This document shows positions 29,660-62,299 of a DNA stretch of 64,000 nt, in pieces. The stretch's first letter is position 1. Each line of letters starts with the position of its first letter. The notes under the pieces were generated by a model. The model had not been told where the DNA came from and searched no databases. It worked only from the letters and a program-made list of their open reading frames with translations. The stretch lies in the NCBI GenBank assembly GCA_000146465.1, contig CP001947.1; one strand, 5' to 3'. A program made the translations under genes and the position numbers.

Positions 29660-30103
29660 TCAGAGATTTGCTGCCATCTTTGCTTATATCTCTGGCTTCT
29701 CCTGTAGTTTCAAGTCTATAAACCAATTACCTCCTGGGGAAACAAACCATTACAGAGGCAAGCTTTCCCACGCTGTCCCAAGCCAGAACTGAAACAAACA
29801 ATGTTCTATGCTTCCATTCATTACACAATCGAGAAATGCTTCAGAGTACACTTTCCGTTGTTATTACAGAGACCAGGGATAGAAAAGCATGCATGGCCTG
29901 CTCGCCTGCATTCTTGTGACAAATATCGAGGTGTTGTATGTATAAACCCCGACCACAACTTGACAGAAATAAGCTTAATTTCCGAAAGCAACTTTGGGAT
30001 CTCATTGGGTACTTGGAAGACAAATTAGTAAAAATGGAGGGAGAGATGTTCGATTAGTGCATTCCATATATCTTAAGACACTCTCGATGTGTGTTCCCAC
30101 GGC

Positions 30104-33871: not shown

Positions 33872-34069
33872 GGACCCACTCAAAGGGCTCTCCATCTTCT
33901 TGAGGCTTGTATTAACTAACCACAGAGCCAAGCAGGTTGGCATCCTTGAGGCACAAGGACTCAATTATCTTCGCCAATAAGAAACTGTAGGATCCGAGAG
34001 CTTTCAATTGGAAAGCATTGAAACAGGTGTTTTGCATAAAATATTTAATGGAAAAAGTATCAGGTCACA

Positions 34070-34318
34070 ATGAAGTTTATAGTTGGAATAATCTCAATCT
34101 TTGCAGTGTCAGTTTTCTCAACATCATCGCTGGGTACTTCTTCATCCAGAACTTTCACCAGTAGCAGGTACTACTCGGGCTCTTCAAGTAGTGGAAGCGG
34201 AGTAACCCCCTATTCTTCATACTATCATGGATATGGGGTTGGGACAGGGACAACAGTAGATCCTTTTGCAGATATTAGATCTGGAGCACTGGGAAGATCA
34301 TCTTCCATTCACTACTAA
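34070..34318 (+). CDS. small secreted Ser/Gly/Tyr-rich protein (82 aa), spore-wall/secreted protein candidate
   Basis: A signal peptide MKFIVGIISIFAVSVFS is followed by a low-complexity mature part (SSLGTSSSRTFTSSRYYSGSSSSGSGVTPYSSYYHGYGVGTG). Confidence 0.5.
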   Translation: MKFIVGIISIFAVSVFSTSSLGTSSSRTFTSSRYYSGSSSSGSGVTPYSSYYHGYGVGTGTTVDPFADIRSGALGRSSSIHY

Positions 34319-34513
34319 GGTAACTCAACCTGAGGTACGTTAAATAAAGCAATAATGCACAAACTATCTTCTTTCTTCTTTCCAATAGGAATCCTCCATT
34401 GCAATTTGTTTCATATGCGGTGTGCAATTTGTTAGAGAAGTTGTCTTGGAGCCAATCATTTTGCTCAACAAGAAACAGAAAAATATAAAATAAAAAATCC
34501 GAAGGTTTGAAAA

Positions 34514-43072: not shown

Positions 43073-43230
43073 ATGGATGGGGCCAGAGGATAGGCTTGAA
43101 TACCCCTTTTCTGAAGGGACCTGAGATTTGAAGAGAGCTGACCAGTGAGGTTTTAGAGGGATTCTAGGATAGGCAGAAAAAAAACAGCCAATTACTCCAA
43201 GAAAAGATTAAGGAGATCTGCAATATACTT

Positions 43231-43288
43231 GGGCATAGAAAAGAAGATGGAGTCAATAACGAGGTGTGTTTCTATTGGCATAGAAAAT
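43231..43288. repeat. two copies of GGCATAGAAAA in the promoter region of the secreted Gly-rich gene
   Basis: The first copy is GGGCATAGAAAAGAAG at about 43231. The second is TGGCATAGAAAATTAT at about 43277. The secreted-protein gene ATG is at 43302. Confidence 0.3.
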
Positions 43289-43301
43289 TATAAATAATCA
43301 G

Positions 43302-43601
43302 ATGAATTCAAGATCAATGAAGCTTTCTAGTGTGATGTTTCTAGCTCTGTCTTCTCTTGTCTCTGCTGGCTGGTGGGGATCGTCTTCTACAACCGAAGGA
43401 GGTGACAGCAATAGCTCACAGTTATTTGGAATGGGAAGTCAAGGGGAGGGGGGAAATCCCAGTACAGATGGAAAGAGTAACCTGGTTGAGGAGTCGGAAG
43501 GACATAACGACGAAGGTAACGAAGGAGGAGAAGGATCCAAGAACAACCCTGGAAAGAACGAAAACTCATCAGGCTTCTGGGAGAGCAAAACACAAGACTA
43601 A
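43302..43601 (+). CDS. small secreted Gly/Glu/Asn/Ser-rich protein (99 aa)
   Basis: A signal peptide MKLSSVMFLALSSLVSAGW is followed by a low-complexity acidic region (GGDSNSSQLFGMGSQGEGGNPSTDG...EGNEGGEGSKNNPGKNENSS). Confidence 0.45.
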   Translation: MNSRSMKLSSVMFLALSSLVSAGWWGSSSTTEGGDSNSSQLFGMGSQGEGGNPSTDGKSNLVEESEGHNDEGNEGGEGSKNNPGKNENSSGFWESKTQD

Positions 43602-43721
43602 GTCCCTGTGGCAGACATTTCTTGCTCTTGAACATCCTCAAGTGAAGAAACAATAAAGCTGTTGTATTTTTGTCATATTATTTATCTGGGATATTTTTAG
43701 GTAAAACATATAAGGTACCCC

Positions 43722-43854
43722 ATGAAGTTTTCTCGGATAGTTATGATGGGGCCGCCAGGATGTGGAAAGGGAACCCAGTCTAAGCTTATATCTGAAAGAT
43801 ATGGAATTCCCCACGTGAGCTCTGGAGACATTATACGGGAAGAGATGATGAAGA
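43722..43854 (+). CDS. ADK: adenylate kinase, exon 1
   Basis: The P-loop is [10 protein letters not shown] in [44 protein letters not shown]. The exon ends at a GTAAGT donor. Confidence 0.8.
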
Positions 43855-43877
43855 GTAAGTTAGGGTAGTAATTTTAG
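43855..43877 (+). other. 23-nt spliceosomal intron (gtaagttagggtagtaattttag) in adenylate kinase, phase 1
   Basis: The donor is GTAAGT and the acceptor is TTTTAG, with a TAAT element 6-9 nt upstream of the AG. Length is 23, which is 2 mod 3 and exactly reconciles the exon-1 and exon-2 frames. An unspliced read-through hits a stop 4 codons later. Confidence 0.7.
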
Positions 43878-44278
43878 ACACCAAGGAAGCAGAAATAGTT
43901 AGAGAGATTGTTAACTCAGGAGGATTGGCTCCTAACGAAGTTGTGAATAAACTGGTGCTGAAGAAGATTCGAAGCATGGATAGGTATATTCTCGATGGAT
44001 ACCCCAGAAGAACCGACCAGGCAGAAATGCTGGGAGACAGTGTTGACCTAGTGATATTTATTGATGTGGACAAGGATACATGCATTCATAGGATCTGCAA
44101 GCGAAATCATGGAAGGGATGATGATGAGGAGGAGGTTGGAAGAAAGAGATATGACGTCTACACGAAGGAAACAATGCCTATACTTGAGCTGTATAAGAGC
44201 TATGGAAAGATAGTAAGGGTGGATGGGAATGGTTCTCCCGAGACCATATTTTCTAAGATCTGCGGAATTATTGAATGA
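43878..44278 (+). CDS. ADK: adenylate kinase, exon 2
   Basis: The sequence continues NTKEAEIVREIVNSGGLAPNEVVNKLVLKKI...GYPRRTDQAEML...RYDVYTKETMPILELY, covering the NMP-binding and LID/core regions typical of adenylate kinase. The frame is open back to 43859. Confidence 0.8.
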
Positions 44279-44400
44279 TATATGCGATTAAATGGCATTT
44301 GGTGTGTCTTTGAATAGTTGTTGTGTCTTGAAGGTTGAGTGAAGAACTCCTTAAAAAAAGGAGCAAATAAAAGCAAAAACAAGCCCTGAAGAGAGAGGGG

Positions 44401-51805: not shown

Positions 51806-52786
51806 TCAGAAGTCGACATCTATCCTGAACGAATCATTTCCATTATCTATCCCCACAAATGCCTTCTGGTACTGTGACTCTCTCTTGTCGAAGAAGTTTG
51901 TCTTTCCAACCAAAGAGATGTTCTCCATAAAATCAAACGGGTTGGGAGTATGGTATATCTTCTCCTCCTCAAGATTCTCTAGGAGAGTATCGGCTACAAA
52001 CTCTATATATTTGCACATCAACTGGCAGTTCATCCCTATAAGATCCACTGGAAGACTTTCACTCAGAAACCTCTTTTCAACTTCGACTGCATCCATCACC
52101 ACCTCCTTTACTCGCTTGCACTTCTGTTTCAGGTAACGTCTATGCAAAAGGCATGCAAACTCACAGTGCAGACCCTCGTCCCTGCTTATCAGCTCGTTCG
52201 AAAACGTTAGTCCAGGCATCAGCCCTCTCTTCTTCAGCCAGAATATAGATGCAAATGACCCAGAAAAGAATATACCCTCCACACAGGCAAACGCCACAAG
52301 CCTTGTTGCAAAGTCAGAATTCTTATCCTCAATCCATTTTATTGCCCAATCGGCCTTGTCTTTCACAGAGGGGATAGTTTTGACTGCATTAAAAAGGAAC
52401 TTCTTCTGTTCTCCGTCCCTTACATACGTGTCAATCAGCAGGCTGTACATCTCACTGTGGATGTTCTCAATTGCAATCTGGAACCCATAGAATAGCTTTG
52501 CTTCAAGCATCTTGACCTCGCTGGAGAACCGCTCCACCAGATTCAGATTGACAATTCCATCAGACGCCGCAAAGAATGCAAGAACATTGGAGATAAAGTG
52601 CTTCTCCTTTGGATTTAACTTCTTCCAATCTTCAATGTCTTTGTCGAGGAGAACCTCTTCCACAGTCCAGAACGAGCTTTCAGCCTTCTTGTACATCCTC
52701 CATACATCTTCGTGTTGTATGGGAAAGAGTACAAACCTCTCTTCTTTAGGATCCAATAGTGGCTCAATTTTTTCTTCGCAACTCAT
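51806..52786 (-). CDS. RNR2: ribonucleoside-diphosphate reductase small subunit (R2)
   Basis: Di-iron ligand helices ([10 protein letters not shown]...[23 protein letters not shown]) and a tyrosyl radical site region. The C-terminal tail is present. Confidence 0.9.
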
Positions 52787-52924
52787 AAGCTATTTGACAG
52801 AATCTGCTTATATACTTTTTTTTGGAGGGAATATCTCCCTCAAAATAATAATCATCTAAATTCAATTTTACAATCCTTGCTCGATCTAATTTCGTCGATC
52901 CCCTCTTGGCATTTGGCTTCACCC

Positions 52925-52963
52925 ACCTAAGCCATGGCGGGAGAGCGGCCCCAGAACCTAAGC
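52925..52963. repeat. 8-bp direct repeat ACCTAAGC flanking a 23-bp GC-rich spacer (CATGGCGGGAGAGCGGCCCCAGA) inside an otherwise AT-rich intergenic region
   Basis: Copies are read at 52925-52932 and 52956-52963. The GC-rich spacer contrasts sharply with the ~25-30 percent GC surroundings. Confidence 0.3.
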
Positions 52964-53064
52964 TAGGAATGACTATTTATTGTAAATAATGTTCCCTATA
53001 AAAGGAACACTGGTATTATTTATATTTACTGCACCCTATATATTATAACTATTATTGAATGTTT

Positions 53065-53717
53065 TTACTCAAGATCAATAAATTCCTTTCTCATGAATGG
53101 TAATATACGTTTTCTCGCATTTGCAAACCAATTATCTATTTGAGACAATTTTAGTCCTGTTTCTTTAGAAAGTATTTTTTTTCTATTTTAGTTGGATAAG
53201 GATTAGAAAGATGCTCCTTTAGCCATCTTCTTAGCATTTTGGACACTTCTCTTGGAAAATTAGCTCTCCTAGAATGAGGACTACTTCCGAGCCAACCATT
53301 AGTTGATGAATTATTTCTTATATAACTCTCATACCTGTATAAATCCCTCTCGTTCATTACATTCATCATATCTATGATGTTGTCCATTTTTCTTTGGAGT
53401 TTGGTGCATTCTGAATCAAATATAGAAACAAGATTTTTTTCAAATAGTAATGCATACTTAAATTTCTCAGCAATTAGAAACAAAGCTAGCTTGTGTGATA
53501 AGTTATTCGGAAAAAAATGTGTATTGGAGCATGTTTCGTAATTTTTCCGAATTTTTAATAGGACTTCCTTCAAATGATGTTCATTTATCATTCCTTGAAA
53601 ATATTGTTCTTTTGCGATTAATATTTGGCCAATATGCTCCACCATATCTAGAAAACTATCGGCATTTAAAACAAAAATTGATAAACTCGTAATTAACGTT
53701 ATAAAAATAATATCCAT
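53065..53717 (-). CDS. TALE-class homeobox gene whose ORF is interrupted by a -1 frameshift in an A8 tract (the ORF-track part is 53151..53717; the homeodomain C-terminal part continues in another frame to the stop at 53065)
   Basis: Frame 1 ends ...RRANFPREVSKMLRRWLKEHLSNPYPTKIEKKYFLKKQD-stop. A second frame reads (R)KKILSKETGLKLSQIDNWFANARKRILPFMRKEFIDLE-stop. Adding one A to the A8 run (minus strand; T8 on plus at 53175-53182) gives a continuous canonical TALE homeodomain: NF...WL..H..NPYP...EK..L...TGL...Q..NWF.N.R.R. Confidence 0.7.
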
Positions 53718-53797
53718 ATCACTTCAGAAGACTATTATAACTTGTCAAACTCATCAAGACAAGATAAAGTATAAAATAAAAAGATATTTTACAAAAT

Positions 53798-55276
53798 ATG
53801 AATTTAGGATGGCTACTGAAGATTCCAATGCGAAAACATTCAAACAGGAAAATAATTGTATATGAAAATAGCATGGCTTCGTTTTACTCTAGGACGTTTG
53901 AAATAATTGAAGAGCATATTTCTACCATATCCAATAATGAACATCATAGAGATGGATTAGTAGAGTATATAGAAATGTTATCATATTTTCAAATCTCTAA
54001 TGAAGATCATGAGAAAAAAGAAGAAATTAATAGACAAAGGCAAAGCTTACTTAAGAAATTTAGATCCCTAACCTTAATTAGTATTTCAAAAGTAGAAAAA
54101 GACAATAGGAAAATATTGAAATCTTATCATGGAGTATTACATCTTTTAGATTTGATTGGTTTTGGTGTAAATCCTTATGAAATGGTTTTAAAAAAATGGT
54201 TAAACACCAATTGTATGATAATTAGTGATGTAGAAAGACATGCCATAAGAGGAAATTTCGAAAAAGTGATCGAAGCATATCCCTATTTAAACGAGGCTAT
54301 TAATAATTATTTAAACTTAAGGAAGACGTCAGGAAATGAATACAGGAAATTATTTGCGTCTTGGAAGATCAAATATTTTAAAATTATTCCCAATAATTTA
54401 AAGGAAATTCTTTTTCATAATATTAACGGGGATGGTATTGACTGGATTGATCATATTTGCTATAAATCGTTTTGTATGAACACACAAAGGAATGGGATCG
54501 ATCTTATAAATAGGGAAGATGAAATCGGAATGATATTAACACATAATTATGATGCACTAATAGAACGTTCTAAAGGATGGATTAGACTAGTATTATTGTT
54601 CGTTTGCCCTCATACAAAATTTGATTTATTTCCAAGAGCATTTGAATCTATCGGGAAATTCCTATATTTATCAGATTATCGCTTATCTTTGAGATTTTTT
54701 TCGTACACAGAGAAACTAATCTTATACTTTAATCACTTTTCCTGTAAGTTTTCTAAAAGTCTTTCGGATTTAGAATTCTTGGTTGAGTATTCCAAAAAAA
54801 ATAATATTAATGGAAATTCTTTGTTAAAAGAGTACTGCCAAAATCTTCTTTCTAATCAAGAGTATTATAATCTTTTTTATGTTATATCTAAATATGAGCT
54901 CTGCGATATAAACATAAATTCCGAGTTTATAGAATTCTGTATTAGAAATACAACAATACTAACTGAAAACTTCACTAAAACATCGTATGGAATTTTTATT
55001 GGAAACTTTAGGAGATTTCTTAGTGGAATAAAAGTTGGTGAAGGTGAAATTATAGCATTGATAAATTCAGATTATTTTTCAGCTCTAGATAGTAGAACAT
55101 TTGAAATAATACTAGAGAACAGATGCATTACTGTGAACATGCTTTATAAGCTTTTAGAAGGAATGTTAAATGTGGAAAGAAAAGGGAAGTCTAATCCCAT
55201 ATTGAAAAGCAAAAAAGCTTTAGTTCTCAATAAGTTAGCGGAATCTACAGGTCTCGGGAAGGACATATCAATTTAA
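53798..55276 (+). CDS. hypothetical protein (492 aa), AT-rich orphan ORF divergent from the TALE homeobox gene
   Basis: The ATG was verified. The composition is Asn/Ile/Lys/Phe/Tyr-rich, reflecting local GC of roughly 28 percent. No recognisable domain; a search for a homeodomain helix-3 was negative. Confidence 0.45.
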   Translation: MNLGWLLKIPMRKHSNRKIIVYENSMASFYSRTFEIIEEHISTISNNEHHRDGLVEYIEMLSYFQISNEDHEKKEEINRQRQSLLKKFRSLTLISISKVEKDNRKILKSYHGVLHLLDLIGFGVNPYEMVLKKWLNTNCMIISDVERHAIRGNFEKVIEAYPYLNEAINNYLNLRKTSGNEYRKLFASWKIKYFKIIPNNLKEILFHNINGDGIDWIDHICYKSFCMNTQRNGIDLINREDEIGMILTHNYDALIERSKGWIRLVLLFVCPHTKFDLFPRAFESIGKFLYLSDYRLSLRFFSYTEKLILYFNHFSCKFSKSLSDLEFLVEYSKKNNINGNSLLKEYCQNLLSNQEYYNLFYVISKYELCDININSEFIEFCIRNTTILTENFTKTSYGIFIGNFRRFLSGIKVGEGEIIALINSDYFSALDSRTFEIILENRCITVNMLYKLLEGMLNVERKGKSNPILKSKKALVLNKLAESTGLGKDISI

Positions 55277-55614
55277 ACTATTAAACTGGTAGTATCAATT
55301 TAAATTACAAATACTTTGGAAATATCTCCTTCTGTTTATTAACTTTTCAAGGGATTGCCGTTTTTTAAAACAAACATATAAGAGTGATGATACATAACTT
55401 CTTTTTGTATTCTTAAGTAAATTCATGTAAAATTTTAGAATAAAATGTCCGAAGATATTTGAGTTCCTATAGCAATAGCAGAAACACACCCTATCTCAAT
55501 TCATTATACTTCCTGGGAATCCATACTTTAAAGATTTAAAGTAAAACTAAAAAGGAAGGGGGTGTTTATTTCAATAGATTAAAATCGAAATATTGTATTT
55601 TTAAACTAAGAGAT

Positions 55615-58461
55615 TTAATGAGCAAACACTCTGGAGACATATACCGGCCCGAGTATCTCATCAATAGAGAGGTCTTCTTTTGCTATCTCGTTGACAGCCT
55701 CAACAACTTTCTCTTCATAGCTCAGGTCGATTATACCCCTTAGATACTTGTTCCATATGTCGGTGCTGTAGATTTCAAAGTTTTTCTTCCTTTCCCTGAA
55801 GAACGAGATGACTCCGTTTCGGAACTCTTCAAACTGATCTTCGCTCATCTCTCTGAAGTATTCGTCCAGGTCTTTTACAAACTTCCTTATCCTCTTTTCA
55901 AGGAAGTCTACATCCTTCTCGCTTTGCACTATGAATTTGATGTACTGCTCGTCATCTAGATTCAGAACCCCAGACCCAACTACATACCCAAGCTCTTCCT
56001 TTGTCCGCAGATCATCGAAGAACATCGCTTTGCATGACTGTTGTACAAAGTGGGCTATGGCTGCATCCTTGTGGTTCCTGCATTTTCCGCAATAGTAGTT
56101 CAAGGAACATGCATTGTTCACCTTGTCGCTTGTTTTCACATCACATCTGTATTTTCCATCAAGAAGATCTTTCTTTACATAATCGTATACTTCCTCCTGT
56201 TTCGAAAGAATATTTTCAAATATCTTCTCGGCATCTTGATACTCGATGTTCCCAATCACAAACATTTCCAAGAAGAACTTTCGGCTCATCTTGAATTCCG
56301 TGTCTACAGAGCTCAGCTTCTCCATCAGCTCCTCTGCCATCAAATGTCCGGGAATCCTCATGCACTTCAGCCCTTCATTGCATCGCTTGTGAGGGCTTTC
56401 GTTTCTCTTTGTCTCAAACTCATTCCAAATCCGCTCCTTCACAAGGTTCCGCCGTGACTGGTTGGGCTCTTCAAACAGAATGTCGAAAAACTGCCGGGAG
56501 ATCTCAACACTCATGTGGTTAAAGCATTCTATCCGAATCTCCACCCCATAGTGCTCGACACGAACATCGATGTTCATTCCTGTTCCGTGAAGATATCCAT
56601 CGTGCCTTCTAAAGAATTGGCTCTTGGCATTTCTGAGCAGAAATATCAAGTTAATCATGTTCTCATTGATTTGGTCCATTCGAAGAAGACATCCTATAAA
56701 GACCTTTGGAACCTTGTAGGTATCGTTAAACAGGTAGTTGATTTTTCCTCCAGAAACCTCCTTTGAAATAATTTCTGAAGGGGCCTCGATTTTTATCATC
56801 TCTCCTTCCTTCCACTCAACTGCCTTCTCCAGTGAGTCTTCAGAGACCACTTTGTCTTTTTCATTGTACTTCGGAGAATACACCTCTTCTGTTTTAAACT
56901 CCCCCTTTAAATCCTTTTGCCCTTGAAGTTCGAGCCATTTGGAGAAATCCGTCATCTTCTGGACAATCTTCTTGACTTCTTCTTTCTTTCCTTTAGAGGA
57001 CTTCTGGGGAAGGACATTTGGGAACACCTTTTCTTCTTTCTTTGGTAAGTCCAACTCAAATATCTGGTCTCCCACATTGTATCTCACCCCATATATCTCC
57101 TCGCGCATGTCAAACATCCCTGTTCCCTTTGCAACATGGAACACAAGCCACTTTGGGAAGTTCATCATCTTTTCCACAATCCCCTTGATCTCGTTCTTGT
57201 CAAATTTCTCAAAACAGTGTTCGTTATCAAGAACATTCTCAACCGGGAAAAACTGCATGTTTCTAGAGATCTTCTGTGCCTGGTACATAGGCTCGTCACT
57301 CTCCTCGTACTTGAACACATATCTCGATCTCTTTTGGATCTCTTCATACTCATCAGAAGAGATGGGGATGTCTTTGAGATACCTTACAAGTTCTAAAAGA
57401 ACTCTTTCAGGTCTTTTGTTTCCCTCGGAAGACAGATGCATTGTTATTATTATCAGAGAATAGTCTGTGTAGTGGCACATCTCATACTCAACCTGCAGAA
57501 CGAGCCCTTTGTCCTTAACCCTACATGCAAACCCCTTTGTATCGTCCCGAAGAAACATATTCATTACATACTCGTAAGGATTGTTCTTGAAAATCTTGTA
57601 CCCCGACTCAACAGTCATTGTAACAACAATCGATCTTGTATCTGCAATAGGCTCCACCCTGATCCATCGGTTGGTGTATTCAGAGTCAAACACAGTCCAT
57701 TCCTTGTCTGCTTCAAGTTCTATGTTTCCACTGCTCTTCTTCTCCTCGGTCCCCTTTGGAACCCCCTCAAACATCTTCAACATCTCCTTTAGCTCCTCCA
57801 GACCTTTGTTTCCACAAATCACTGTACACATTTTATCGCAGGAATACTTCTGTTTCCAGAACTCTGCCATCTCTTCCCATATCCCTTCTTTTCGAAGTGT
57901 GTCGTAGTTTCCTGTGCTGAACATAGATATCGGCAGTTCCTTCTTGCAGCATCTTGAAATCATCCTCCAGATCCTCCAGTCATCAACATTCAGTCCGTTA
58001 CAGAACTCGGAGTTCACAGCCGACACCTCTCTCTCCACCGAGTTTTTCTTCAGCAGTGGTGTCTTGAAGAAGTCTGCAAGTCGGTCCACCCCTTCTTCAA
58101 AAGCCTCAGGAGCAATATCGAAGTAATACACAGTAACCTCTCCATAGGTGGAGGCATTGTATTCCCCGTTGTTCTTTGAAAGGAATTTGCCAAAATCCTC
58201 TTCATCAGGGTATTTCTCAGTCCCCATAAACAGCATATGCTCAAGGAAATGTGCAAGACCTTGAGTAGATACCGGGTTATCAAACGATCCAACCTTGACA
58301 GAGACTGCACAGCTGCACTTGTCCAGTGAAGGATCCGACATAATCAGCCCTCGCATCCCGTTGGGCATCTCGACATACTCATATTCCATCGAGTCGGTGA
58401 GACTCTTGTGAATCTTTTTGGCAACTTTAAGACAATTCATTAAAGCGGAAAGCCTAACCAT
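55615..58461 (-). CDS. M16A zinc metalloprotease, insulin-degrading-enzyme/Ste23-like
   Basis: The inverted zinc motif HFLEHMLFMGTEKYP (HxxEH) with downstream E, within an M16 four-domain architecture of ~950 aa. The start is set at ATG 58461 (MVRL...). The ORF track extends to 58599, which would overlap the divergent neighbour. Confidence 0.85.
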   Translation of the reverse strand: MVRLSALMNCLKVAKKIHKSLTDSMEYEYVEMPNGMRGLIMSDPSLDKCSCAVSVKVGSFDNPVSTQGLAHFLEHMLFMGTEKYPDEEDFGKFLSKNNGEYNASTYGEVTVYYFDIAPEAFEEGVDRLADFFKTPLLKKNSVEREVSAVNSEFCNGLNVDDWRIWRMISRCCKKELPISMFSTGNYDTLRKEGIWEEMAEFWKQKYSCDKMCTVICGNKGLEELKEMLKMFEGVPKGTEEKKSSGNIELEADKEWTVFDSEYTNRWIRVEPIADTRSIVVTMTVESGYKIFKNNPYEYVMNMFLRDDTKGFACRVKDKGLVLQVEYEMCHYTDYSLIIITMHLSSEGNKRPERVLLELVRYLKDIPISSDEYEEIQKRSRYVFKYEESDEPMYQAQKISRNMQFFPVENVLDNEHCFEKFDKNEIKGIVEKMMNFPKWLVFHVAKGTGMFDMREEIYGVRYNVGDQIFELDLPKKEEKVFPNVLPQKSSKGKKEEVKKIVQKMTDFSKWLELQGQKDLKGEFKTEEVYSPKYNEKDKVVSEDSLEKAVEWKEGEMIKIEAPSEIISKEVSGGKINYLFNDTYKVPKVFIGCLLRMDQINENMINLIFLLRNAKSQFFRRHDGYLHGTGMNIDVRVEHYGVEIRIECFNHMSVEISRQFFDILFEEPNQSRRNLVKERIWNEFETKRNESPHKRCNEGLKCMRIPGHLMAEELMEKLSSVDTEFKMSRKFFLEMFVIGNIEYQDAEKIFENILSKQEEVYDYVKKDLLDGKYRCDVKTSDKVNNACSLNYYCGKCRNHKDAAIAHFVQQSCKAMFFDDLRTKEELGYVVGSGVLNLDDEQYIKFIVQSEKDVDFLEKRIRKFVKDLDEYFREMSEDQFEEFRNGVISFFRERKKNFEIYSTDIWNKYLRGIIDLSYEEKVVEAVNEIAKEDLSIDEILGPVYVSRVFAH

Positions 58462-59962: not shown

Positions 59963-62299
59963 ATGGGGATCAAGGATACGTTTGGAATGGAAGGGATAAG
60001 AAGACTCTTTGAAAGAGGTTCGTTTGTGGAAAATCCCCTGGGCAAGTCATTGATTGTGAAGCATCTTTCGTCTCTGAATTCCAAGAGGCAGATCAAAGGG
60101 GCAAGGAGTCTGGTGAGCAGGATGCAGCGTGGAGAAGATCTCTTTGAGCTCTGTAATGATGTCATCAAGGCGATGGACACAAGAGATCCCGAGCTCAAGA
60201 GAATGCTCAACCTGTATCTGGTGAAGTATGTGCAAGGATGGCCTGCAAAGCAACTGATATGTATCAACACCGTACTGAAGGATCTTGGAGACGTAAATAG
60301 CGAAATGCGACATTGTGCAATTCAAGATAGTGGGCTGCTAGGAGACGGAGCAGTGATCAAAAACTATGTTAATCCTCTCAAGGAGCATGGGGTTAGTGCG
60401 CTGCCTGAGACAAGAAGGAAGGTAGCAGACTCATTGAGGAACTATTTCAGGAAAGATCCCCGTTTGTTCCATGACGAAGACCTTTGCGATCTACTGAGAG
60501 ACTTGGTGTTTGACGAGGATGCAGGTGTGTGTGCATCTGCACTAAATAGCGTTCAAGCCATAGAGAAGGAGACAAGAGTCCTTTCTACCAAAGACATCTA
60601 TATCCTCTTTGGAAAGGCCATTAAGACAGGAAACAGGGAAATCCTTGGAAGTCTTCTGGAAGTGATGAATAACAGAGCAGAGGACTTCCTTGATGCTGCT
60701 CCATTGGTTCCATTGTTGAGATCGTGTAGCCTTCGGATATTCCGTCAGGCATCTGATCTGGCCATTTCTATCGATCCCTCTTACAGGCAAATTGTGTTTG
60801 ATCACCTCAAAGGGTTTCTTAATTCAAAGGACGAGGAGTTGTATCTTGTACTTGACTATGCCGAGTCTCTTCTTGATCATGTGAAGTACGACAATTCATG
60901 CTTTGCCATCTACCACAGCGACAGGAAATACAATAAGATAAAGAAGCTTAAGATTCTATTCAAAAGGCTGGATAGCATCTCTGTGTCGGAAATAAAGAAC
61001 CAATGCAGAGATGAAGAACTTCTTGGAGTGATTTTGAAGGAGTCTCTTATTGCAGACTATCTTATAGAGGAGCCGTTCAAATACATACGCAAGGCAGATG
61101 AAATAATAAGAGTTCTGTACAGTGAAGATGCTATTTCAGAAAAATGGTCGGGACTGATTGAAAAATTCTTGATGAGTGCGAGGGAAGTGCAGGAAAGGCA
61201 GAAGTATATCTATCTCTGTGGGAGATATGTCCACGAGATTCCTTCAGAAGTTATAAGAATCCAAAGTCTGTACATTCCTTCTCTAGTCAACGAGACGGCC
61301 AGGTTTTATCTTAGCCTCCATAGAAGAGGAGTGGTAAATCTGGAAGAGACCCTAGGGCACCTCCGTCTGGTACAGAAGAGCCCAAAGGACAGAATCCGAG
61401 CAGTGATCAATGAACTGAAGACCCGGGGAATAGGAGTGTTTTCAGCATTTTGTGACATCAAAAAGCGGGATCTGAACAGCACTAAAGCCTGTAGATCTGT
61501 TGGGATAAAGTATGAGGAAAAGACCACTTCGATACTCGATGGCAAGCCATACTATGGACTAAGTGAAGATGGATTTCTAAGGGAAAATTCTGGAGAAGCA
61601 TTGGAGAAGTTCCGCGAAGAGGAGAAATCTCTACGTGAAGAATGCTCTTCTCTTGAAAGAGGAGAGACACAAACAACCGAGCTCTCTTCTGCAGGAGAGA
61701 GTAGTCCATTTCCAGGAAATGGCTCACAATGTCCAGCTCTGTTCTTGGGCAAGGAAGACGAGGAAAATGTTTGGCTGAGGTTTGCTGAATCTCATCGTCC
61801 TGTTGAAGGTAAGAGGGCCAAAGAGAAGGAATCCACCAGGCTGATAGACACCCTTGGGCTAAAAGGGATTCTTGCCATTGCTGGTGAAGAGGTTATACTT
61901 CAAGTGGATGTGCTAGAAAGTCCATTGGTTATTTATTACAGGTGTAAGGGGCGACTCAACAGTATCAAAATAGACGGCGAAGGGACTTTTTCTCTTTTCA
62001 CAATAGGTCTTCCAGTAATCAACTCGGAGTTCAGCCTAACAATAGGAAAGTCCAACTACGAAATCTACCTGGGAATCAGAAGCTTGATGAATCCATTTGA
62101 GTGCTCGAAGGATGAGTTTGAAAGGAAATTCCATGAGCTCAGAGACCACATACTCCTAGGGGAAATCGACACTGGGAAGGCATATGCCGTCGACAACCAT
62201 CGGTTCTCATTTTCTGTCCTTGGCTCAAAATTCTACGGAAAGCATCTCAATGGACAGGCAATCCTCAAAGGCCCGAGGAAGCTGTTGGGACTCTTTTAA
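59963..62299 (+). CDS. adaptin N-terminal domain protein (AP-complex beta-type large subunit or coatomer beta-like)
   Basis: The N-terminal HEAT/ARM trunk aligns with beta-adaptins (PELKRMLNLYLVKYVQGWP...LKDLGDVNSEMRHCAIQ...RKDPRLFHDEDLCDLLRDLVFDEDAGVCASALNSV). A C-terminal beta-sandwich-like appendage is present. The start is the first ATG after a TTG at 59939. Confidence 0.55.
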   Translation: MGIKDTFGMEGIRRLFERGSFVENPLGKSLIVKHLSSLNSKRQIKGARSLVSRMQRGEDLFELCNDVIKAMDTRDPELKRMLNLYLVKYVQGWPAKQLICINTVLKDLGDVNSEMRHCAIQDSGLLGDGAVIKNYVNPLKEHGVSALPETRRKVADSLRNYFRKDPRLFHDEDLCDLLRDLVFDEDAGVCASALNSVQAIEKETRVLSTKDIYILFGKAIKTGNREILGSLLEVMNNRAEDFLDAAPLVPLLRSCSLRIFRQASDLAISIDPSYRQIVFDHLKGFLNSKDEELYLVLDYAESLLDHVKYDNSCFAIYHSDRKYNKIKKLKILFKRLDSISVSEIKNQCRDEELLGVILKESLIADYLIEEPFKYIRKADEIIRVLYSEDAISEKWSGLIEKFLMSAREVQERQKYIYLCGRYVHEIPSEVIRIQSLYIPSLVNETARFYLSLHRRGVVNLEETLGHLRLVQKSPKDRIRAVINELKTRGIGVFSAFCDIKKRDLNSTKACRSVGIKYEEKTTSILDGKPYYGLSEDGFLRENSGEALEKFREEEKSLREECSSLERGETQTTELSSAGESSPFPGNGSQCPALFLGKEDEENVWLRFAESHRPVEGKRAKEKESTRLIDTLGLKGILAIAGEEVILQVDVLESPLVIYYRCKGRLNSIKIDGEGTFSLFTIGLPVINSEFSLTIGKSNYEIYLGIRSLMNPFECSKDEFERKFHELRDHILLGEIDTGKAYAVDNHRFSFSVLGSKFYGKHLNGQAILKGPRKLLGLF

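Follow-up and report, generated by a model that had tools for sequence, protein, structure and literature searches.

The DNA analyzed here is a 64-kb stretch of Encephalitozoon intestinalis chromosome VI, called the window below. Between the start codon of RNR2 and the stop codon of an M16 (insulinase-type) peptidase gene lies an AT-rich island (52787..55614) that holds a homeobox gene of the three-amino-acid loop extension (TALE) class on the minus strand and a gene for a 492-residue protein on the plus strand. An island is present at this site in every Encephalitozoon species examined, and it occurs in two non-homologous forms, termed here type A, which is the form in the window, and type B.

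Composition and gene content of the island

Both flanking genes are conserved and of normal composition. RNR2, which encodes the small chain of ribonucleotide reductase (51806..52786, minus strand), matches Pfam PF00268 with E = 3.7e-108, while the peptidase gene (55615..58461, minus strand) matches the Pfam M16 domains and is called as 948 aa in GCA_051312795.1 (locus L001) and in the Logan assembly of ERR13302946 (L002). In the two genes the GC content at third codon positions (GC3) is 0.54. The drop in GC between them, which had been noticed in the initial annotation, is borne out by computation, with values of 0.292 for the island (52790-55615) and 0.427 for the remaining window. Within the 64 kb, 1-kb windows with a GC below 0.36 occur exclusively in the island, which is thus the only such trough. 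The two island open reading frames (ORFs) have GC3 values of 0.26 and 0.28, compared to 0.48 +/- 0.05 for the other 44 ORFs, whose minimum is 0.38 (z ~ -4.7), and spacer GC is 0.23-0.34 in the island compared to 0.405 in 6.3 kb of pooled ordinary intergenic DNA. Since third codon positions and spacers are both lowered while GC at second codon positions is equal inside and outside, the drop characterizes the region and is not due to the encoded proteins. Moreover, CpG dinucleotides are not depleted (observed/expected 0.46-0.89 in islands, 0.49-0.64 in flanks) and indices of repeat-induced point mutation (RIP) are normal in the islands, with no RIP signature, so that AT enrichment driven by methylation or RIP-type decay is ruled out as the cause. 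The interval between the peptidase and RNR2 is AT-rich also in E. cuniculi (0.306 vs 0.483), in both E. hellem forms, and in E. romaleae.

The spacers that separate the island genes from the flanks (~280 and 338 bp) are three to four times the window median of 86 bp, as had been supposed, and lie at about the 80th-90th percentile. They are not unique in length, however, because gaps of 334-1328 bp exist elsewhere in the window. Three of the long ORF-free gaps (43073-44400, 1328 bp; 33872-34513, 642 bp; 29660-30103, 444 bp) have a normal GC content of 0.40-0.42 and may harbor small genes, RNA genes, or genes with introns that the crude ORF map failed to capture.

The minus-strand gene Eint_060650 (53065..53645) belongs to the TALE class, as the initial annotation had it. 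Once its reading frame is repaired, the protein matches Pfam Homeobox_KN with 69.6 bits (cut-off 24), and the diagnostic three-residue loop extension (P-Y-P) is present between helices 1 and 2, in a segment that reads ...WLKEHLSNPYPTKIEKK.... Its top sequence matches in the PDB are TGIF, PKNOX, and MEIS (E ~5e-16), which places it with the TGIF/MEIS type, while yeast MATalpha2 is a weak match (E ~4e-4). The gene is the positional ortholog of E. cuniculi ECU06_0740, named "Homeobox protein HD-12" (L003), and of an E. hellem homeodomain protein (L005), and it is called HD-12 below. Among these three species, dN/dS is 0.1-0.2 overall and ~0.1-0.18 in the homeodomain, which indicates purifying selection, and the N-terminal half of the protein is fast-evolving (dN 0.38-0.45). 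The longest repaired ORF has 217 aa and starts at 53717, whereas the start conserved among species is M25 (53645), which gives 193 aa; the 24 extra N-terminal residues (MDIIFITLITSLSIFVLNADSFLD; 53646-53717) have no conserved counterpart in E. cuniculi or E. hellem. Gene calls differ in this choice, the Logan call having 217 aa and that of NCBI 193 aa. With the conserved start, the distance to the plus-strand gene is ~152 bp and not the 80 bp first given. A metagenome scan for relatives of HD-12 returned pattern matches, none of which was confirmed.

The frameshift noticed in this gene is confirmed as well and lies in a homopolymer of eight A residues (53175..53182, minus strand, a T-run on the plus strand) that lacks 1 bp. 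One added A restores the 217-aa ORF with a complete homeodomain, the A9 version reading ...KIEKKILSKETGLKLSQIDNWFANARKR..., while the A8 frame stops at 53151, upstream of the DNA-recognition helix 3 (WF.N.R), which is therefore not intact in the allele of the window. Helix 3 is in frame in the A9 alleles, found in GCA_051312795.1 and in the assembly of ERR13302946, and in the orthologs of E. cuniculi and E. hellem. The A8 allele, with its 164-aa product, is represented by four protein accessions, one of them on a contig whose length, 230,490 bp, agrees with that of the E. intestinalis telomere-to-telomere (T2T) chromosome. Judging from the accession series, two of the four probably come from recent isolate assemblies; recent assemblies of E. 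intestinalis isolates were built from Illumina reads at ~300x (PMC12697097). The run is a conserved coding feature (E-K-K); in E. cuniculi it is A9, and in E. hellem it is A8 with a G after it. The E. intestinalis assemblies are nearly clonal, with three to four differences in 10-17 kb, one being the A8/A9 indel, and in both A9 assemblies the longer run is linked to the same two single-nucleotide polymorphisms (SNPs; 60698 G>T and 62353 T>C) in a haplotype, L002 differing at 61314 as well. Because A8 recurs in four accessions and A9 is tied to two SNPs in two assemblies, the indel is treated here as a genuine strain polymorphism at a mutational hotspot, the alternative being heterozygosity within a diploid strain.

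The plus-strand ORF (53798..55276) is identical to Eint_060660 of E. intestinalis ATCC 50506, and its 492-aa product is identical across five independent E. intestinalis assemblies. It had been described as an orphan without a recognizable domain. At the level of sequence profiles this description holds, since Pfam gives no match for the ORF nor for any of 30 family members, Nucleopor_Nup85 (PF07575) included, a PDB sequence search with the family gives none at E <= 1, and a word-indexed protein search with the ORF, and then with the family profile, retrieves only the query. An exhaustive HMMER search, in turn, finds 38 full-length relatives (best E = 7e-78), of which those with names come from Vairimorpha necatrix, Gurleya vavrai, Astathelohania contejeani, and Pancytospora philotis. 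At the level of the fold the description fails. The AlphaFold model derived from this family is of high confidence (pLDDT 86, pTM 0.79) and all-alpha with residues 1-22 disordered, and its Foldseek matches are nuclear-pore chains of Nup85 length and Nup85-Seh1 crystal entries, Nup85 coming first and other nucleoporins of the ACE1 fold next; the UniRef name of the protein is already Nup85. The model thus predicts a diverged, Nup85-like scaffold nucleoporin with an ACE1 fold, neither an orphan nor, as had been considered, a homeodomain partner diverged beyond recognition. In contrast to Nup85 (~650-750 aa), the protein is short, its identity to the matched structures is only ~10%, and the N-terminal beta-strand with which Nup85 binds Seh1 is not predicted in the model.

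Elsewhere, homologs of this gene sit in the block zf-C2H2, Yju2, Nup85-like gene, tRNA-synt_1c synthetase, proteasome subunit, PAP2, and GCN5 (V. necatrix; a GC-rich microsporidian; a close Encephalitozoon relative), with no homeobox gene near them at these three loci. This microsyntenic block (L008 2045-9500; L009 6594-12439; L013 6789-15929, with the GCN5-type acetyltransferase in L008 and L013) is kept across lineages ranging from Vairimorpha to Encephalitozoon relatives, an unusual degree of conservation in microsporidia. No gene intervenes between the TALE gene and the peptidase in E. cuniculi, E. hellem, or E. romaleae, and tblastn detects no remnant of the Nup85-like gene at the locus. 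Because the homologs adjoin the tRNA synthetase elsewhere and the congeners have no gene at the locus, the head-to-head pairing of HD-12 and the Nup85-like gene appears to be a derived relocation specific to the E. intestinalis lineage. The pair, which had been compared with the head-to-head homeobox loci of fungal mating-type regions, is thus not conserved. Corradi et al. listed ten hypothetical genes of E. intestinalis without a recognizable E. cuniculi ortholog.

The homologs match the composition of their own genomes, with GC3 of 0.72 in a genome of 54% GC and of 0.20 in one of 27% GC, whereas Eint_060660 has a GC3 of 0.26 in a genome of 42% GC; therefore, the island imposes its own composition on the gene residing in it. 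The initial annotation had held that orthologs of housekeeping function, in the same syntenic position and with normal composition, would speak against a special locus. The homologs are indeed of a housekeeping type and fit their own genomes, but they occupy a different syntenic position. The closest relative of Eint_060660, found in a GC-rich organism (L009), has only 34-37% identity to it, and the protein groups with Nosematida sequences, as vertical descent predicts.

A 14-nt direct repeat (TTTAAAACAAA[A/C]AT, at 53665-53678 and 55364-55377) brackets the 1.7-kb Nup85-like segment, one copy being a conserved motif upstream of the TALE gene, and it may reflect insertion microhomology or chance. 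As a target-site duplication it was rejected, being weak and probably fortuitous. L009 (JGI 3300073837) and L014 (SRR21633403) are compact GC-rich contigs (54% and 59%) related to the Encephalitozoon/Ordospora group; L009 holds the closest known relative of Eint_060660, and L014 carries an RNR2 that shares 80% identity with its E. intestinalis counterpart.

Two forms of one island and an inverted element

Differences in presence and absence between strains and species, proposed as a check in the initial annotation, were found at the island itself. Type A contains the TALE gene, accompanied in E. intestinalis by the Nup85-like gene, in an interval of ~1.4 kb (2.8 kb in E. intestinalis), and is found in E. 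cuniculi GB-M1, in E. hellem GCA_029215505.1, and in five E. intestinalis assemblies. Type B lacks a TALE gene and carries on the opposite strand a gene for an 89-aa protein (EHEL_060685) in ~0.8 kb; it is found in E. hellem ATCC 50504, in a second E. hellem record (245 kb), in E. romaleae, and in L010, a 174-kb contig of Logan SRR23946965 that apparently represents an undescribed Encephalitozoon lineage, with a synonymous divergence (dS) in the flanks of ~0.33-0.39 from E. romaleae and ~1.0 from E. hellem. Each form is collinear among its carriers (E. cuniculi, E. hellem GCA_029215505.1, and E. intestinalis for type A; E. hellem 50504, E. romaleae, and L010 for type B). All five E. intestinalis assemblies are of type A, with no dimorphism seen among them.

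The two forms can be compared within E. hellem, in which a type B locus (L004) and a type A locus (L005) have flanks that are 99.5-99.7% identical over 20 kb. Homology ends 19 bp past the stop codon of the peptidase and restarts 156 bp ahead of the start codon of RNR2, and the middle segments, of 642 bp in L004 and 1189 bp in L005, share no blastn similarity except for one inverted element, described below as element X. Nor does protein homology cross between the forms, as searches with the 89-aa protein against type A islands and with the TALE protein against type B islands give nothing below E = 0.04. Within E. hellem, therefore, the island consists of non-homologous alternatives at one site with conserved flanks and sharp borders, as is expected of an idiomorphic locus. 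The low-GC zone coincides with the non-homologous zone, and GC steps exactly at the right border (from 0.21-0.40 to 0.44-0.45) and at the stop codon of the peptidase. In three lineages the 89-aa gene is of equal length, and its dN/dS is 0.21. Its product is non-basic (pI 5.5-6.8), has no significant Pfam match, and is modeled by AF2 as helical with low confidence (pLDDT 57), so that type B does not contain a recognizable cell-identity transcription factor of the HD1/HD2 homeodomain (HD), HMG, or alpha-box kind.

Element X, of ~147 nt, is located in the window at 55421..55567 (minus strand), and alignment and a covariance model place it in both forms of the island, in inverted orientation. In the coordinates of each locus, its copies lie at 8670-8815 (+) in L003, 8686-8831 (+) in L005, 9221-9366 (-) in L004, 9228-9373 (-) in L006 and L010, and 9612-9753 (+) in L007. 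With the covariance model it is recovered at every Encephalitozoon locus and, in Ordospora pajunii, at the syntenic spot upstream of RNR2 (E = 3e-12). The alignment has 55 invariant columns, and, with only seven sequences and an alignment fitted to the model, 90% of cells are paired compared to 80% in shuffles, 13 pairs show double changes, and 0 of 500 shuffles reach this level; slid controls pair at 54% or less. G-U pairs favor one strand. Scans of the island and of X for Rfam families and tRNAs gave no match. Like a box H/ACA snoRNA, X has a length of ~130-147 nt, two predicted hairpins with compensatory changes, a hinge that fits ANANNA in six of seven copies, and an ACA that is invariant in all seven and is followed by a T-run right after the 3' hairpin; it is also free-standing and conserved beyond the genus. 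Unlike one, it lacks an Rfam match, and the E. intestinalis hinge is one base off ANANNA. X is thus a candidate H/ACA-like small RNA. Since the Ordospora copy has the type A orientation, type A is ancestral and type B derived.

In O. pajunii (L007 8198-10999), RNR2 has neither an adjacent M16 peptidase nor HD-12, while X is kept; because both genes are missing beside RNR2 there, the peptidase-TALE pair was either inserted in the ancestor of Encephalitozoon or lost or moved in Ordospora. The more distant relatives L011, L012, and L014 have different neighbors of RNR2 and are uninformative for the island.

The dimorphism is older than the species that carry it. The polymorphism is trans-specific, as E. 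hellem has type B in common with E. romaleae and L010 and type A in common with E. cuniculi and E. intestinalis. Between E. hellem and E. romaleae, flank dS is 1.0-1.16, compared to 0-0.004 within E. hellem, a ratio of a few hundred-fold, and the type B islands of the two species are 72% identical while their flanks are 82-84% identical. The ranking of TALE identities between species follows that of RNR2 distances, and no SNP cluster is seen next to the E. hellem borders. Because the divergence of the island is at least that of the flanks, TALE ranks as RNR2, and the borders lack a SNP cluster, recent introgression from any sampled lineage is excluded. That the two forms have been neutrally retained from a time before E. 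hellem and E. romaleae split is not credible. The age of the forms points instead either to balancing selection acting over the long term or to exchange with a lineage outside the sample.

Interpretation of the dimorphic island

The dimorphism, its age, and its composition may be brought together by regarding the island as an ancient, balanced, recombination-cold, idiomorph-like locus, of which the window carries the E. intestinalis version of an old chromosome VI segment, a reading that we hold with about even confidence. According to it, the two forms would be unable to pair and are partly inverted with respect to each other, so that the segment would not recombine and would thus escape the process that maintains a high GC content in the cores of the chromosomes, GC-biased gene conversion being the simplest candidate. 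In any resident gene, third codon positions and spacers would then drift to ~27% GC, including the immigrant nucleoporin gene, which would have moved from beside the tRNA-synt_1c synthetase into the type A island and taken on its composition. Long persistence would need balancing selection, whose most natural source would be a role in cell identity or compatibility, with HD-12 opposed to the type B gene; for a TALE factor such a role would be a natural candidate by likeness to fungi, algae, and plants, as knowledge of the family suggests. In the lineage of ATCC 50506-type strains, HD-12 would subsequently have lost 1 bp in its A9 run and, with it, recognition helix 3.

The likeness to fungal idiomorphs such as MAT1-1/MAT1-2 of ascomycetes, sexP/sexM of Mucorales, and Sxi1alpha/Sxi2a of Cryptococcus is considerable. 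Two non-homologous sequences lie between near-identical flanks with sharp borders, one form carries a TALE homeodomain factor, an element common to the two occurs in opposite orientations, the polymorphism predates the species, and the composition is distinct, consistent with suppressed recombination. By contrast, neither mating nor meiosis has been seen in Encephalitozoon, the second form lacks a recognizable HD, HMG, or alpha-box protein, the dimorphic part spans only 0.64-1.2 kb with both forms so far in one species only, and HD-12 is TGIF/MEIS-like and distant from MATalpha2. A mating-type function is thus something that we infer and do not demonstrate. In its full form, the proposal would be that the island is a functional mating-type locus at which A cells express the TALE protein and B cells the 89-aa protein, both kept in balance since before the split of E. 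hellem and E. romaleae, which we consider possible but unlikely.

Several points weigh against the idiomorph-like interpretation. Only three E. hellem assemblies are available (two B, one A), while the five of E. intestinalis and the single one of E. cuniculi are all A. Type B has no recognizable transcription factor, so the classical HD1/HD2 pairing is absent, and no sexual cycle is known in Encephalitozoon (PMC3814335). HD-12 is dispensable in culture, since ATCC 50506-type isolates carry it with a broken frame and type B strains lack it. Moreover, GC-biased gene conversion is hypothetical in these genomes, and a low GC3 could also result from weak constraint on genes with little expression. 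Finally, the two E. hellem forms, or the A8 and A9 alleles, could be heterozygous in one diploid strain, of which an assembly picks one.

A second explanation, which we judge unlikely although deserving of weight, is that the island is a turnover spot under low constraint. HD-12 would be dispensable, lowly expressed, and repeatedly lost, type B would be a rearranged remnant in which a small ORF was gained, AT-richness would reflect an AT-biased mutational equilibrium, and the E. hellem dimorphism would stem from exchange with an unsampled lineage rather than from balancing selection. The broken frame of HD-12 in the window strain and its absence from type B agree with this, as do the fast-evolving N-terminal half of the TALE protein, the insertion of a housekeeping gene without harm, the occurrence of type A in only one of three E. 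hellem assemblies, and the plain GC-to-AT drift with no CpG or RIP signature. However, purifying selection acts on both the TALE and the 89-aa genes, the divergence of each form between species is at least as deep as that of the flanks with no recent donor visible, the flanks are identical up to sharp borders without a donor SNP tract, and GC steps at the borders of non-homology and not at those of genes.

It is less probable still, and in our estimate distinctly improbable, that the island represents the centromere of chromosome VI or lies next to it, as a short, AT-rich, recombination-cold segment of fixed position and rapid sequence turnover, of which low GC would be a side effect. The island is the single AT trough in 64 kb and, in each species, is situated 42-47% of the way along the chromosome, and between strains its position is kept while its sequence is replaced. 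Encephalitozoon centromeres are unlocated, the T2T study of 2023 having been unable to place them, and their placement in the chromosome cores has been doubted for a supposed lack of compositional deviation there (PMC10158259; PMC12449221).

The "GC trough" centromeres of Malassezia, Candida lusitaniae, diatoms, Cyanidioschyzon, and Plasmodium are essentially free of ORFs and bind CENP-A. With them the island shares a single trough of one to a few kilobases, unique sequence, and a conserved mid-chromosomal position, and it differs from them in being mostly coding with genes under selection, in lacking an Ordospora counterpart, and in having two gene-bearing haplotypes. Far from being gene-poor or inert, the E. 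intestinalis island is ~73% coding, its genes are under purifying selection and include a scaffold nucleoporin that is presumably expressed, and type B measures only ~640-820 bp. In O. pajunii the syntenic spot with X has no trough (GC 0.38 vs 0.43), and the authors of the T2T assemblies found no motif common to the chromosomes (PMC10158259). A centromere alone would also leave two discrete, gene-bearing, trans-specific haplotypes unexplained. The last alternative, horizontal acquisition from an AT-rich donor or an assembly or sequencing artifact, is largely refuted and hardly credible, for although the composition looks foreign (0.29 vs 0.43), the Nup85-like gene is apparently absent at the locus in congeners with no copy visible in the searches made, Corradi et al. 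list E. intestinalis genes without an E. cuniculi ortholog, and the frame break lies in a homopolymer, the island and its TALE gene are found at the same site across the genus with a TALE divergence that ranks as that of the flanking genes, the nearest Nup85-like relative is 34-37% identical, in a GC-rich host, and groups with Nosematida, five independent assemblies share an identical 492-aa protein, and the A8 and A9 runs recur, respectively, in the four accessions, one of them on the chromosome-sized contig, and with two SNPs in two independent assemblies.

Mating-type loci and the significance of the island

The idiomorph-like interpretation has to be distinguished from the homeobox clusters of Bürglin, to which the initial annotation had likened the island. 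Both belong to the same genus and gene superfamily, and to both applies the idea that homeobox genes mark a mating-type locus. However, those clusters (ECU03_0600/0610, ECU04_0970/1030, and ECU10_1470/1480) lie on chromosomes 3, 4, and 10, whereas the island corresponds to ECU06_0740 on chromosome VI and is outside the named loci. Moreover, each cluster comprises two homeobox genes without allelic forms between isolates (PMC2866331), while the island has one homeobox gene and alternatives exist. The divergent arrangement of a TALE and a typical homeobox gene is not found here, the neighbor being the Nup85-like gene. The earlier interpretation is thus partly supported: it was right in spirit, as this is a special, strain-variable homeobox locus whose two non-homologous forms occupy one site in E. 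hellem and are shared across species, and it was wrong on the orphan partner, on the identity with a MAT-like locus from the literature, and on a conserved gene pair. The likeness to a mating-type locus gains real support from these two shared forms, which lay beyond the initial annotation.

Lee et al. in 2010 sought HD genes "idiomorphic between isolates" and found none at the three clusters (PMC2866331). Within the searchable literature, no paper was found on the island, its two forms, or element X, including by locus tag and by the name HD-12. The island is a two-form homeobox polymorphism of the kind that Lee et al. sought, and it is, at the same time, a compositional deviation in a chromosome core. 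Alongside it, the analysis provides a fold-level identity for an "uncharacterized" E. intestinalis gene, shows the HD-12 frameshift to be a strain polymorphism, and yields in X a candidate small RNA conserved between Encephalitozoon and Ordospora. These results touch on two open questions, namely whether microsporidia have mating types and sex, and where their centromeres are located. If the island were indeed a functional mating-type locus, it would be the first idiomorphic locus found in Microsporidia, and it would follow that these human pathogens have a cryptic sexual or parasexual cycle.

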